Below, in pieces: positions 19,067 to 22,514 of a DNA stretch of 64,000 nucleotides. Location: contig CAKOWI010000003.1 in assembly GCA_934122275.1 (NCBI GenBank), positions 29,952 through 93,951 of the forward strand, written 5' to 3'. Position 1 is the first letter of the stretch; every line of letters starts with the position of its first letter. The notes beneath the pieces are model-generated. The model was not told the DNA's origin. It searched no databases and saw only the letters and a program-made list of their open reading frames with translations. The position numbers and the translations under genes were made by a program. Source of the DNA: an uncultured Bacilli bacterium (GTDB lineage Bacteria; Bacillota_I; Bacilli_A; RF39; UBA660).

Positions 19067-19143
19067 GGCGATGTAGCTCAGCTGGCTAGAGCATCCGGTT
19101 CATACCCGGAAGGTCGTGAGTTCGATCCTCACTGTCGCTACCA
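19067..19143 (+). tRNA. tRNA-Met (anticodon CAU), elongator type
   Basis: GGCGATGTAGCTCAGCTGGCTAGAGCATCCGGTTCATACCCGGAAGGTCGTGAGTTCGATCCTCACTGTCGCTACCA folds as a cloverleaf with D-arm GCTC/GAGC, anticodon stem CCGG/CCGG flanking the loop TTCATAC, T-arm GTGAG/CTCAC and an encoded CCA. It closely resembles the Bacillus elongator tRNA-Met as I recall it. A lysidine-modified tRNA-Ile2 cannot be fully excluded. Confidence 0.85.
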
Positions 19144-19157
19144 ATTGTGAATAACTA
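19138..19157 (+). repeat. Direct repeat copy 1 (attL-like): CTACCAATTGTGAATAACTA, covering the last 6 nt of tRNA-Met and 14 nt downstream
   Basis: Matches 21998-22017 at 19 of 20 positions. Confidence 0.8.
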
Positions 19158-19181
19158 ATTCAGAAATGGATTAGTTTTTTT
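19153..19181 (+). terminator. Intrinsic terminator after tRNA-Met
   Basis: AACTAATTC-AGAAAT-GGATTAGTT hairpin followed by a T-run. Confidence 0.6.
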
Positions 19182-19643
19182 GTTGTTAGAAAATATCCTT
19201 GAAAGAAAGAATGGTATTATGTTAAATATTATTAAAGAGGAATTACCTATTGAAAAATCGTTAAAAAGGAAGTTAGAACTAATGTGTGATTTTTCTAAAA
19301 CAACACATACTATTATAACTTGGAATATTAGAAAGATAGATAAAACAGCTGAAACTCTTACCGAAAATAATAAAGCACTTACTTTAAACAATAATACCAA
19401 AGAATAGAATAATGAAATATCTTTTTTAAAATCTAAAATAAGTGGTTTAAGAAAAACGATTGAGTATCGGAAAGATAAATTTGATAAACTAATATCATTC
19501 TTATATAGTAAATTTCATAATTGACATGATAAAGACGATAAATATATTAATGTAGTTAACGATATGTATTAAAATAACGTTTTAAATGATGATGATATTA
19601 AAGAGTTAAATTTAAATAAGAAACAAGAAGATTTTAAAAGATA
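19180..19643 (+). pseudogene. Gene remnant: one reading frame of about 155 codons interrupted by TAG (19405), TGA (19522) and TAA (19570); coiled-coil-like, possibly the C-terminal part of a plasmid/ICE mobilisation or replication protein
   Basis: My conceptual translation is ...KALTLNNNTKE*NNEISFLKSKISGLRKTIEYRKDKFDKLISFLYSKFHN*HDKDDKYINVVNDMY*NNVLNDDDIKELNLNKKQEDFKR*. There are far fewer stops than random AT-rich sequence would give. The family assignment is a guess. Confidence 0.35.
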
Positions 19644-19709
19644 ATTTAAGAATTATTAATAAAATATTAGATAATGGTGATATAATAAATAATCACAAGG
19701 AGGATTAAT

Positions 19710-20408
19710 ATGGAATACAATGTTTATTGTGACGAAAGCTGTCATTTAGTAAGTAATGATAGCAATTATATGTTAATCGGTGCAATTTCTTGCCCTAAGA
19801 ACAAAGTAAAAAAAGTAAATGAATATATAGAACATTTAAAAGAAAACTATAATATTTCTAATAAAATTGAGCTAAAATGGAACAAGATTGATAAAAAAAC
19901 AGAAAAATTATATTTAGATATTATTAATTATTTCTTTAATAATGATGATTTAAAATTTCGGGTTATCGTTATAGATAAAACAAAATTAACCCACGAAAAA
20001 TATAATCAAACTGAAAACGATTTTTATCATAAAGCATATTACGAAATGCTAAAATACATTATTGTTCCAGGAAATTCATATAATATTTATCCTGATATAA
20101 AAGATACAAACTCATATTATTATCATCAAGTAATGCTTAATTATTTAAGAATTAAAATGGCAGATTATAATAAAAAGACTATTCGTAAAGTTCAACCTAT
20201 TAGATCTTATGAAGCTCCTATATTACAAATAAATGATATATTAATTGGAGCATTATCTTATTATTACAGAAATCTATCAAATAATAGTGTAAAATTAAAC
20301 ATTATATCAGAAATCAAAAAATTGTATCAAAATGACTTGAATACAACATCATATTGTAGTAATACGAAGTTTAATATATTTATGTGGAGATCAAGAAATG
20401 ATATCTAA
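19710..20408 (+). CDS. DUF3800-like protein
   Basis: The N-terminal YCDES motif and C-terminal LQINDILIGAL resemble the conserved Y.DESG and Q.AD motifs I associate with DUF3800. AAGGAGG RBS upstream. Confidence 0.6.
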   Translation: MEYNVYCDESCHLVSNDSNYMLIGAISCPKNKVKKVNEYIEHLKENYNISNKIELKWNKIDKKTEKLYLDIINYFFNNDDLKFRVIVIDKTKLTHEKYNQTENDFYHKAYYEMLKYIIVPGNSYNIYPDIKDTNSYYYHQVMLNYLRIKMADYNKKTIRKVQPIRSYEAPILQINDILIGALSYYYRNLSNNSVKLNIISEIKKLYQNDLNTTSYCSNTKFNIFMWRSRNDI

Positions 20409-20904
20409 TAAATGTGGACTGAACGGTCCATTACCTGAAACAACTACTAATGATGAATTATATGATTACTTTATAAAAAATATATACTATGGTGATTTAA
20501 AAATAAATGGAATGAGAATTAAAGTATTTACAACGCCATTTGAAGATAATAAAATGCAAGGGTTCTTTCATTTAACAACTAAAACGCAAAAAAATTCTGG
20601 AATAAAAATTCGAATGAAAGAACCAAGAGCATATTTTATAAATTATATTGTACCGATGATAAAAAACTATTTAAATTGTCCAACTTGTGATGATTCAAAA
20701 TGTAGTAAAATAAAAATTTGGACTGCTCCATATAAAAATATTAAGAGAACCAAATTATTATACTGTGATGATTTATATAGTTATATAATAATTCTCGAAA
20801 GAAGTAAGAATGATATGTATATAATTAGTTCATATTTAATTGATGAACCAGGATATTTAAAAAATGTATTAAAAGAATACGATAAATACAAAAAATCCTC
20901 TTAA
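20398..20904 (+). CDS. Hypothetical 168-aa protein, translationally coupled to the DUF3800-like gene
   Basis: Overlaps the upstream gene by 11 nt. Contains a CPTCDDSKC cluster and a C-terminal YSYIIILERSKNDMYIISSYLID strand pattern reminiscent of small RelE/barnase-like nuclease folds (weak). Confidence 0.5.
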   Translation: MISNKCGLNGPLPETTTNDELYDYFIKNIYYGDLKINGMRIKVFTTPFEDNKMQGFFHLTTKTQKNSGIKIRMKEPRAYFINYIVPMIKNYLNCPTCDDSKCSKIKIWTAPYKNIKRTKLLYCDDLYSYIIILERSKNDMYIISSYLIDEPGYLKNVLKEYDKYKKSS

Positions 20905-20928
20905 ATTAATTTAAGAAGATTTTAAATT

Positions 20929-21000
20929 AAAAAAAACGGATAACGCAACTAATAAAAGTTGCGTCTCCAGGACTCATATAACCCTTGGTCATTGAGTAAC
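20929..21000 (-). ncRNA. Candidate ~72-nt small RNA, convergent with the DUF3800 operon
   Basis: A consensus promoter (TTGACA-17-TACAAT) lies just upstream. The predicted RNA has a 5' hairpin (ACUCAAUGACC-AAG-GGUUAUAUGAGU) and a terminator hairpin (ACGCAACU-UUUAUU-AGUUGCGU) followed by U8. It contains no ORF. Confidence 0.5.
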
Positions 21001-21003
21001 TAG

Positions 21004-21032
21004 ATTGTAGCACAAATTACATTTAATGTCAA
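21004..21032 (-). promoter_or_regulatory. Near-consensus SigA promoter: TTGACA (21032-21027), 17-nt spacer, TACAAT (21009-21004)
   Basis: Read directly on the minus strand; the spacer ends in TGC. Confidence 0.6.
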
Positions 21033-21277
21033 TCCATGGAAATTTTTGCACCACATTATATATTATTCCTCATATTATATTAATATACATAGATATGAAT
21101 AACATTTATTAGCAATCTGTATAGTAATAATGAACTGTTAATTTCCGTTTCCTAATTCTGTTTTATATTCGTTTTAACCAATTTAACAGAGAACATTGAA
21201 AAAAAACATCATTTAGTATATAATAAATCTCACATTTTTATGAGATATTTTATATTCAAATTTATGGAAGTGGTTTT

Positions 21278-21952
21278 ATGCTATTAAAGGATAAATATTT
21301 TCATAGCATTCACTCATATATTGATACATCCTATAGACACATAATGCTAGATGATATTATTGATAAAATGGAAAAAATATTTCGTTGTGGTTTTATCTTA
21401 CCATATAAAGATATAGTAAGAATTTATGGTAATGTTATATCAAGAAATAATTATGTAACTTTAAATGGATCAGATTATATTTCAATATCACTTCACGAAT
21501 CTAATCCACAAAAAATTGATATTGAATATAAAGAAAAAATATCGAATTGCGAAAATGCTTTTCAAAGTTTTATCATACAAGAACCATCAATTGTTTTAGA
21601 ACCTAATATAGCGAAAGATTTAAAGTTTTTAAATTATAACGGAATATATCTTGAAAGATTAGTGGCTGAACCCGTTTCATTAGAATATATGAGTGCAATT
21701 TCAATATTTGCACCTGGAATGTTAGAACCATTTTTTAACAATATACCCGAAACACAATATTATAATTGTTTTAATGATTCATCGTTTAGAATAATAACTA
21801 TAGAATATTTAGATAAGATTATAGAATTAATTAAAAAATATGGGTATGATATTCCGGTTGTTGATATATGTACAGGTAATTCATATAAAGAAAATGAAAA
21901 ATACAGAGAATATGTAAAAACTTTAAAAAGACACTATATTTCTAGAGATTAG
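21278..21952 (+). CDS. Hypothetical protein (island cargo, no recognisable domain)
   Basis: 224-aa ORF preceded by a long 373-bp intergenic region. Confidence 0.45.
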   Translation: MLLKDKYFHSIHSYIDTSYRHIMLDDIIDKMEKIFRCGFILPYKDIVRIYGNVISRNNYVTLNGSDYISISLHESNPQKIDIEYKEKISNCENAFQSFIIQEPSIVLEPNIAKDLKFLNYNGIYLERLVAEPVSLEYMSAISIFAPGMLEPFFNNIPETQYYNCFNDSSFRIITIEYLDKIIELIKKYGYDIPVVDICTGNSYKENEKYREYVKTLKRHYISRD

Positions 21953-21997
21953 TTATTTATTAACTAATTACTTAGGTTCCGGATATACTATATCCTC

Positions 21998-22017
21998 CTA
22001 CCAATTGTAAATAACTA
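21998..22017 (+). repeat. Direct repeat copy 2 (attR-like): CTACCAATTGTAAATAACTA
   Basis: Matches 19138-19157 at 19 of 20 positions. It is preceded by ATCCTC, which also occurs in the tRNA T-arm. Confidence 0.8.
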
Positions 22018-22040
22018 GATGATTTTCATCTAGTTTTTAT
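22013..22040 (+). terminator. Terminator hairpin homologous in position to the one after tRNA-Met
   Basis: AACTAGATG-ATTTT-CATCTAGTT followed by a T-run. The outer bases are the same as in the 19153 hairpin, and the inner stem differs with compensatory changes. Confidence 0.55.
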
Positions 22041-22151
22041 TTTTTATAGACAGCCTTTCTTATTAATTAGAACAGACTTCTTATATAAATGATCTTAATT
22101 TCATACACTAATTTTAAAAAAAGTATTATAATTTAAACAGAGGTAAATATT

Positions 22152-22514
22152 ATGACTTATGGTGATATTTTAAACAATTTATCAAAATCAAAATTTAGAA
22201 GTAGTTTTCATTTAAGAAAGTATATGATAGATTATATAGACAATAAAGGTTATATAGAAATTAAAAAGCATGCGTATGATTTTATAACAAAAAGACTTGC
22301 TCCGAAAGAAATACCAAACGATGGTAGGCAAACACCTATGAAAGGACATCCCGTTTTTATAGCACAACATGCTTGTGCATGTTGCTGCAGAAATTGCCTT
22401 TATAAGTGGCATAAGATACCAAAAAATAAAGATTTAAGTGAAAAAGAAATAGACTATATAGTAAATCTTTTAATGCTGTGGATAAAAAAAGAATATGAAA
22501 ATGCAAAAAAGTAA
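22152..22514 (+). CDS. DUF4186-like protein
   Basis: HPVFIAQHACACCCRNCLYKWHKIP matches the conserved Cys-rich core I associate with DUF4186. Confidence 0.55.
   Translation: MTYGDILNNLSKSKFRSSFHLRKYMIDYIDNKGYIEIKKHAYDFITKRLAPKEIPNDGRQTPMKGHPVFIAQHACACCCRNCLYKWHKIPKNKDLSEKEIDYIVNLLMLWIKKEYENAKK

Follow-up and report, generated by a model that had tools for sequence, protein, structure and literature searches.

The DNA examined here, called the window below, is a 64-kb stretch of low-GC DNA (GC ~25%) from an uncultured Bacilli bacterium, and our subject is a 2.9-kb islet at the 3′ end of its tRNA-Met gene, which we read as the probable remnant of a mobile element. From left to right, the locus comprises the tRNA-Met gene, the first copy of a 20-nucleotide (nt) direct repeat that runs into a terminator hairpin, a pseudogene, the genes M04A and M04B, a small RNA (sRNA) gene convergent to M04B, a third open reading frame (ORF3), the second repeat copy with its own terminator hairpin, and a DUF4186 gene. 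All of these features are on the forward (+) strand, with the exception of the sRNA gene.

The tRNA-Met gene (anticodon CAT, 19067..19143), the putative integration target, was called by ARAGORN and scores 62.7 bits against the Rfam tRNA model. Its last bases, CTACCA, open the left, attL-side copy of the repeat, CTACCAATTGTGAATAACTA, which consists of the last 6 nt of the tRNA plus 14 nt (19138..19157); the right copy (21998..22017) differs by one mismatch. A sequence-only reading of this DNA had described the pair, and it is present as described: two such matches were found in none of 100 shuffled sequences, and no further copy at up to three mismatches exists in the 64-kb window, where the repeat is therefore unique and not a common intergenic motif. 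Both copies lead into terminator hairpins. The proximal one, AACTA-ATTC..GGAT-TAGTTTTT, folds with −9.7 kcal/mol (z −3.3) and belongs to the terminator AATAACTAATTCAGAAATGGATTAGTTTTTTTG (19149..19183, by folding), which takes the place of the native tRNA-Met terminator, and the distal one, AACTA-GATG..CATC-TAGTTTTT (22013..22045), folds with −12.3 kcal/mol (z −5.6). Folding thus bears out the earlier description of one outer frame around different, self-consistent inner stems, and this AACTA..TAGTTTTT frame has just three occurrences in the window. The same reading had pointed to the hexamer ATCCTC in front of the second copy, as in the T arm of the tRNA. The match is real (21992-21997, directly abutting the repeat), but in the tRNA the hexamer sits 7 nt upstream of CTACCA; because it is out of register and other family members have TTTGTCC at this place, we treat it as a coincidence.

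Empty sites in related species and the ancestral trailer

One genome per species was scanned with the DUF4186 flank, and the matching loci and contigs, which carry labels beginning with L here, came from uncultured gut Bacilli with DUF4186 proteins 70-84% identical to that of the window. The DUF4186 gene (22152..22514; Pfam E 4e-49) is the conserved right-hand chromosomal flank, as judged by synteny, and the order epimerase, GNAT, tRNA-Met, variable interval and DUF4186 is kept in ten related species. An empty site had been predicted to read tRNA, a single repeat, then DUF4186, and this arrangement was indeed found in L008, L009 and L015, each time with a trailer like the distal copy. In L009 and L015, tRNA-Met is followed by 187 and 126 nt, respectively, before DUF4186, and in the window 149 nt separate the distal repeat copy from this gene. 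The L008 trailer CTACCAATTGTAAATAACTAGATGACTTCCATCTAGTTTTT (CTACCAATTGTAAATAACTAGATGACTTCCATCTAG) corresponds to the distal copy of the window with its GATG/CATC terminator, at 89% identity over 66 nt, and in an empty site of the window's own locus tRNA-Met would be directly followed by GATGATTTTCATC. A terminator of the GATG/CATC type stands right after tRNA-Met in both L008 and L009, the native sites of relatives being of either the GATG/CATC or the GATA/TATC stem type, and the tRNA-Met terminators of the clade all have AAATAACTAG..CTAGTTTTT in common. The proximal terminator AATAACTAATTCAGAAATGGATTAGTTTTTTTG recurs identically after tRNA-Met in L088, L094 and L138 and after a partial tRNA in L090. 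Since it is the distal copy that the empty sites resemble, the trailer and terminator from the right repeat copy onward are the ancestral ones, displaced by the insertion, and the ATTC/GGAT terminator was brought in by the insert.

Unrelated inserts occupy the same spot in other relatives, namely a gene for a 1194-amino-acid (aa) protein, an insertion sequence with a dihydrodipicolinate synthase (DHDPS) gene, and an AAA ATPase gene; the interval between tRNA-Met and DUF4186 is a variable spot.

Two further observations were made at this site. One contig with the identical GNAT protein (L145, 1-2338) departs from the shared sequence 48 nt short of the tRNA, continues with methyltransferase and radical-SAM genes and has no tRNA-Met; at a coverage of 2x, it represents a rearrangement or else a chimeric assembly. 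Furthermore, the tRNA-Met of the window has a T arm of the form GTGAG/CTCAC with a G7-U66 wobble (19115-19139), which is not found in the ten related species and is common to all alleles of the window's species. We considered whether this unusual arm derives from the element and rejected the idea, as no element-linked tRNA has it and all alleles of the species do.

Intact relatives of the element

The sequence-only reading had proposed searching with the cargo for intact versions that still carry a recombinase, and such versions were found, seated at tRNA-Met, in L088-L093. These loci hold a 97% identical copy of the cargo (92-97% nucleotide identity for the cargo of the intact relatives) in the order tRNA-Met, terminator AATAACTAATTCAGAAATGGATTAGTTTTTTTG, a 90-aa gene, a 617-aa large serine recombinase with Resolvase, Recombinase and zinc-ribbon domains, a 448-aa Mob_Pre relaxase, M04A, M04B, further cargo and the right end, which reads ...CGGATATACTATATCCTC followed by GTACCA and a host-type terminator. 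The recombinase and the relaxase are both present in L088, and the recombinase also in L089. By the definitions in a review (PMC5704250), this architecture appears to be that of an integrative mobilizable element (IME). Compared with the intact element, the window retains the terminator and the start of the 90-aa gene (19150-19346, 92% identity), the relaxase C-terminus together with M04A and M04B (19338-21096, 92%) and the right end (21909-22038, 81%). More than 100 M04A homologues are 89-98% identical, versus 70-84% for the flanking DUF4186 in relatives; between species, the cargo thus appears far more alike than the host flanks, as expected for recently mobile DNA.

The right end, which we take to be the P arm, is conserved (..GATTAGTTATTTATTAACTAATTACTTAGGTTCCGGATATACTATATCCTC, 21935..21997; 94% identical to L113 over 69 nt) and occurs also in L089-L093, L094, L112, L138 and L152, regardless of the cargo that precedes it. 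A scan of JGI metagenomes with the right-end motif returned 12 loci, among which only L112 and L113 were relevant and the rest were chance matches. Among 72,556 plasmids, nothing exceeds 35% identity to the recombinase or the relaxase, and a scan of IMG/VR with the 20-nt repeat gave no match. L113 (1-3540) has the same backbone, with Mob_Pre and an identical right end, and carries a 300-aa protein and an OLD/GajA-like ATPase-TOPRIM protein in place of M04A and M04B; the IME family appears to swap defence cargo. In L090 (4680-5100), a 47-nt partial tRNA-Met 3′ half beginning in the anticodon loop, followed by a second element terminator and 90-aa gene, lies downstream of the right end and looks like the remnant of an earlier tandem copy.

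Decay of the mobility genes

The claim that one gene of the islet is a nonsense-riddled remnant holds and can be refined. This pseudogene (19219..19644) is a fusion: in tblastn comparisons with the L088 proteins, 19219-19344 corresponds to residues 1-42 of the 90-aa protein (72% identity), and the same frame runs on as residues ~344-448 of the Mob_Pre relaxase (64% identity). Its nucleotide sequence is 82% identical to the L088 mob gene, and the L113 Mob C-terminus was compared as well. Three in-frame stop codons, TAG, TGA and TAA, stand where relatives have K, W and K/E, and the 105-codon remnant is all of the relaxase that is left in the window. Since the junction lies in an 8-nt microhomology, GATAAAAC (19339-19346), that is present in both parental genes, a single microhomology-mediated deletion accounts for the loss of the recombinase, of the remaining part of the 90-aa gene and of three quarters of the relaxase. 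As had been stated from the sequence, no integrase remains: there is no recombinase ORF between the repeats, and tblastn with the serine recombinase of the relatives found no match in the whole 64-kb window.

We distinguished six decay forms of the element family, in the window, L148-L150, L094, L138, L152 and L089. A 211-aa 'resolvase' in L094-L101 consists of recombinase residues 1-206 and the last five relaxase residues; in L138, the 90-aa gene is fused to the C-terminal part of M04B, with M04A gone; in L152, the left end joins the relaxase tail directly; and in L089, the relaxase is split over two ORFs. L148-L150 belong to the window's species (same GNAT protein, tRNA and left end), have lost only the 90-aa gene and run into the recombinase-upstream region. 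M04A and M04B are intact in the window, L089, L094 and L152 and destroyed in L138, and the L148-L150 contigs are too short to show them. Decay thus appears to be recurrent, with the cargo usually spared.

Fixation of the islet and selection on its cargo

The islet had been described as fixed, with intact cargo ORFs under selection, and all three points are supported. The three ORFs between the repeats encode proteins of 232, 168 and 224 aa. In L151, a strain that matches the window at 97.4% over 8.4 kb (2.6% divergence), the deletion junction and all three stop codons recur; therefore, integration and decay predate the split of the two strains. Between them, M04A and M04B are 99.0%, the RNA region 99.3% and ORF3 98.7% identical, against 96.5-97.5% for the flanking host genes and 97.2% for the pseudogene. 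Pairwise dN/dS values are 0.05-0.06 for M04A, 0.07-0.13 for M04B and 0.23 for ORF3, which points to purifying selection on the cargo.

The comparison of L151 (581-660 and 3400-3540) with the window (19127-19206 and 21939-22078) also revealed that the single repeat mismatch, at position 12 of the left copy, is swapped between the strains: the window has G on the left and A on the right, and L151 has A on the left and G on the right. This hints at either two independent G-to-A changes or an exchange between the repeat copies.

Ends of the element and the recombination core

In the other family members, the identity common to both ends is only 6-8 bp long, namely TACCAT in L088 and L090, TACCAA(T) in L094 and TACCA(T) in L138 and L152. 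After TACCA, the left ends of L088, L094, L138 and L152 continue with the hairpin (T/A)A(A/G)GGAA.TCTGCTCGA... and then the AATAACTAATTC terminator, and the right ends of these members run into diverse host trailers. Because four other family members share just TACCA(A/T) between their ends, the 20-bp identity of the window is probably secondary and not the recombination core. It would stem from the left arm, itself a tRNA-Met-trailer-like terminator from which a segment of ~34 nt with the hairpin is gone. The element terminator is a diverged tRNA-Met terminator and has AAATAACTA...TAGTTTTT in common with the native ones, and given this resemblance, the longer identity may plausibly have arisen from gene conversion or templated repair between the ends. 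An end identity as short as that of the other members fits a serine recombinase (PMC5704250).

These comparisons modify two claims of the sequence-only reading. It had seen in the repeats and hairpins the signature of a tRNA-targeting integrative element, which stands in substance, except that the 20-bp repeat is probably not the core and that intact relatives encode, beside a MobV/Mob_Pre relaxase, a large serine recombinase and not a tyrosine integrase. It had further proposed that the element carries a replacement tRNA 3′ end and terminator; this is borne out for the terminator, which is the same in relatives, and the tRNA part shrinks to the last 5-6 nt. The serine-recombinase IMEs described so far insert in dispensable genes or with low specificity, with a 2-bp overlap (PMC5704250), and a tRNA 3′ end is an unusual target for such an enzyme.

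Origin of the islet

We consider it likely, with a probability of roughly 80%, that 19158-21997 is the remnant of a decayed IME at the tRNA-Met 3′ end, the cargo of which has been kept by selection. The comparisons show that the element entered the 3′ end of tRNA-Met, which now uses the terminator of the element, and that the native terminator was moved 2.9 kb downstream, where it now closes the cargo transcripts ahead of DUF4186. A deletion between the two GATAAAAC microhomologies joined the 90-aa gene to the relaxase C-terminus, with loss of the recombinase, and three stop codons gathered in the remnant afterwards. Integration may have been carried out by the serine recombinase, with a crossover within TACCA(A/T), and the identity may later have been stretched to 20 bp by repair or gene conversion between two trailer-like terminators. 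The left end, lacking the conserved element-side sequence, might no longer be recombinable, in which case the islet would be locked. Selection keeps a 1.35-kb module, consisting of a DUF3800 RNase H-like protein, M04B and a convergent sRNA of ~70 nt, and ORF3 is kept too.

Several points weigh against this account. The window's left end is without the ~34-nt hairpin segment (T/A)A(A/G)GGAA.TCTGCTCGA.. and has the host-like ATTGTG instead, and therefore integration by this recombinase needs a secondary change or a variant attP. The reconstructed attP, which reads ..CGGATATACTATATCCTCGTACCATAAGGAAATCTGCTCGAAC.., and the reconstructed attB have no dyad symmetry typical of serine-recombinase sites, and the crossover point is therefore not fixed. 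No empty site was found in the same species, members of which were recognised by the identical GNAT protein (196-aa start): among 34 contigs (13 + 21), all that are long enough carry the islet or another allele. The species is present in gut metagenomes, including those of the Hadza (for example ERZ4567885 and ERZ15610562). The defence role of PDC-M04, the system to which M04A and M04B are assigned, is a database candidate only, and our literature search found no paper on it. Finally, L138 shows that the cargo can be lost too.

Among the alternatives, the islet could have reached this lineage without any site-specific integration, homologous recombination having introduced a longer stretch of a related species' chromosome that carried the islet along with its own tRNA 3′ half and both repeats. 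Such a transfer would account for the left end without the element-side hairpin and for a tRNA whose T arm (GTGAG/CTCAC, U66) none of the related species shares and whose 5′ half is the same as in L138. However, the same T arm is found in all alleles of the species, including L148-150, as for simple lineage divergence, and in both its distal trailer and its DUF4186 leader the window is similar to its nearest relatives, which together make the transfer improbable. We regard as quite improbable, too, that the islet is a classical tRNA island, in which a P4-like tyrosine integrase used the whole 20-bp repeat as its core and was later lost. The combination of tRNA 3′ ends and 15-50-bp repeats is typical of tyrosine integrases (PMC5704250), and the 47-nt tRNA-Met 3′ half in L090 is the pattern that such integrases leave; on the other hand, neither the window nor any related element has a tyrosine integrase, with the large serine recombinase as the sole recombinase between the ends, and a 20-bp core is at odds with the TACCA(A/T) to which the shared sequence is limited in four other family members. 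That there was no insertion at all, the repeat having arisen when the tRNA trailer and terminator were duplicated locally, or being a common motif of terminators, and the genes being ancestral and lost in relatives, draws on the fact that the similar tRNA-Met terminators of the clade, all sharing AAATAACTAG..CTAGTTTTT, can arise by descent, and is effectively refuted by a repeat that is unique in the window and a hairpin frame that occurs only three times there, by cargo that recurs at 92-97% identity, linked to recombinase and relaxase, in hosts and contexts that are unrelated, by a right end conserved with different cargo, and by the unrelated inserts at the same site in relatives.

As a decayed IME, the islet can be compared with several known systems. 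Tn4451 carries a large serine recombinase and a Mob/Pre-type mobilization protein. The family described here resembles the Tn4451/Tn4453-type IMEs of Firmicutes in having one large serine recombinase and a Mob_Pre/MobV relaxase, no conjugation pore genes, accessory cargo and a very short end identity. Unlike the described serine-recombinase IMEs (PMC5704250), it sits at the tRNA-Met 3′ end and supplies a terminator, and the window copy has lost both the recombinase and the relaxase. With tyrosine-integrase tRNA IMEs and islands such as IME_Sag2603_tRNAlys (PMC5704250), it has in common the tRNA 3′ end occupied without gene disruption, a repeat with the tRNA end, accretion and decay, and variable cargo; it differs in the recombinase family and in the repeat, which is only 6-8 bp in the other members. 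The lost integration and transfer genes, the recognisable ends and the kept cargo also recall the cis-mobilizable elements (CIMEs), decayed IMEs or integrative conjugative elements (ICEs) that keep attL and attR (PMC5704250). In the window, in contrast, the right-end P arm is intact and attL is without the conserved element-side (P′) sequence, and the islet may not be mobilizable even in cis.

The islet itself is an ordinary outcome, in that a mobile element, once inserted at a tRNA gene, has decayed while its useful cargo stayed behind, and its kind, the decayed IME, is already known. It nevertheless provides a well-documented case in uncultured, small-genome, low-GC gut Bacilli, with six decay forms and a defence module that is kept while the mobility genes rot. 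What is unusual is the pairing of recombinase and target, since a serine-recombinase element at a tRNA 3′ end departs from the usual roles of serine and tyrosine integrases, and the conserved sRNA is the most interesting by-product.

The M04A-M04B gene pair

M04A (19710..20408) encodes a DUF3800 protein of 232 aa and M04B (20398..20904) its partner protein of 168 aa; both match, over their full length, the models of the PADLOC candidate system PDC-M04 (PDLC04353, E 5e-74, and PDLC04355, E 7e-24, respectively). The genes overlap by 11 nt, and M04A has its own extended −10 element, TGATATAAT, at 19678-19686. M04A is a member of Pfam PF12686 (E 1e-10; 42.8 bits at a cutoff of 21) and has the N-terminal DE (D8-E9) and C-terminal QxxD (Q173-I-N-D176) motifs as described in PMC7736814; DUF3800 proteins are described as having an RNase H-like fold and as being linked to retrons and Cas12a2/a3 loci. 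M04B represents a small family (167 representative clusters) with the invariant residues H58, C94, C97 and C102. Its AlphaFold structure model is of good predicted quality (predicted local distance difference test, pLDDT, 87; predicted template modelling score, pTM, 0.83) and has no structural neighbour in the PDB (best E 0.12). Sequence searches of both proteins against PDB chains returned nothing useful, and the module had no blastn hit in 72,556 plasmids or in 50,697 phage genomes.

The pairing of M04A and M04B is kept even in phage loci at 30-47% identity, and the pair occurs outside any element, beside uvrB in L132 and between a LysR gene and ezrA in L135. In these loci, homology is limited to ~19667 to 21032, and hence the pair and the sRNA gene make up an autonomous 1.35-kb module with its own extended −10. 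Taken together, the DUF3800 protein, M04B and the sRNA are most likely an anti-phage or abortive-infection device. In L132-L134 (5813-9750), M04A, M04B and the sRNA gene lie directly upstream of uvrB and are preceded by a 111-aa ResIII fragment; the module may have been inserted in the uvrB 5′ end with duplication of the uvrB start. In L126 (2269-3198), two FuFi-1 RNAs (Rfam RF02986, 82 and 115 bits) are located ~3 kb upstream of a phage-borne M04A homologue.

A conserved small RNA convergent to M04B

Downstream of M04B and on the minus strand, the predicted sRNA gene (20926..21032, ~70 nt of RNA) has a promoter with 11 of 12 consensus positions, made up of the −35 element TTGACA (21032-21027), a 17-nt spacer with TG and the −10 element TACAAT (21009-21004). 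Transcription would start near 20997 and end in a terminator hairpin (20965-20942) whose U-run extends to about 20926. In the predicted fold of the RNA (−25.3 kcal/mol, z −5.7), a CCUGGAG linker connects a 5′ hairpin to the terminator hairpin. On the plus strand the hairpin is without a U-run, and M04A-M04B transcripts may therefore read into the sRNA gene.

The RNA is highly conserved. In the window, L089 and L094 types, 63 nt (20937-20999) are identical despite a dS of ~0.8 in the adjacent genes, and the promoter hexamers are conserved with a variable spacer. The sRNA is also present in L132, L135 and L138, with an invariant 5′ hairpin and linker at an M04B identity of 62-79%, and L135 has two compensatory pair changes in the terminator stem. 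In the phage-borne loci the RNAs have other sequences in the same layout of promoter, 5′ hairpin beginning RCUC/G, short linker and terminator, and RNAalifold recovers the 5′ hairpin from them, with four of its eight pairs changed on both sides. The motif was found only together with M04A and M04B and is absent from L113, the locus with the same backbone and OLD/GajA-like cargo. We had considered the conserved stretch after M04B as an oriT or another backbone site and rejected this, on account of its absence from L113 and of its travelling with M04A and M04B into non-element contexts.

Searches with Rfam returned no family at E ≤ 10 in 20880-21290 and none at gathering score in eight loci, and a scan of IMG/VR with the sRNA core gave no match. 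Pairing between the sRNA and the translation-initiation region of M04A was no better than in shuffles (18/60). Antisense control by the sRNA would be one conceivable mode of action, and the RNA would regulate or neutralise the M04A and M04B proteins.

Weinberg et al. 2017 (PMC5737381) described eleven DUF3800-associated RNA motifs, the function of which was left unexplained. The sRNA resembles these motifs (DUF3800-I to -XI, together with drum and skipping-rope) in that it is conserved and structured, lies beside a DUF3800 gene on the opposite strand and has a Rho-independent terminator; it differs in its shortness (~70 nt, one 5′ hairpin plus the terminator) and in having no match to the DUF3800 motifs of Rfam at E ≤ 10. 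It thus looks like a further, minimal DUF3800-associated RNA. The PADLOC definition of PDC-M04 comprises two proteins, both of which match here, and the module adds a conserved third component, the RNA. We tentatively propose, at slightly less than even odds, the following joint reading: PDC-M04 would be a three-part system of a DUF3800 RNase H-like protein, M04B and an sRNA that acts as regulator or antidote in the manner of type I or type III toxin-antitoxin systems and represents a twelfth, minimal class of DUF3800 RNAs, and its carrier would be the first described family of serine-recombinase IMEs at a tRNA 3′ end with a terminator of its own. The compact DUF3800-M04B-sRNA module offers an experimental handle on why DUF3800 genes often have structured RNAs, a question since 2017.

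The third cargo gene

The 224-aa product of ORF3 (21278..21952) is an accessory protein of mobile elements, and its predicted fold may be ADP-ribosyltransferase-like. Its model (pLDDT 87) is matched by Foldseek to Tpt1 and DarT at E 3e-4 to 7e-3 and probabilities of 0.98-1.0, with template modelling (TM) scores of only 0.33-0.47. ORF3 has no sequence match to Pfam or PDB chains, profile search included, and, unlike DarT, no DarG-like macrodomain or other antitoxin-like partner gene nearby; the predicted fold is a lead only. Just 24 homologues of ORF3, which belongs to no Pfam family, were found, in mobile contexts that include a position beside a tyrosine integrase and an ICE-like locus that encodes TraG/VirD4 and a serine recombinase.

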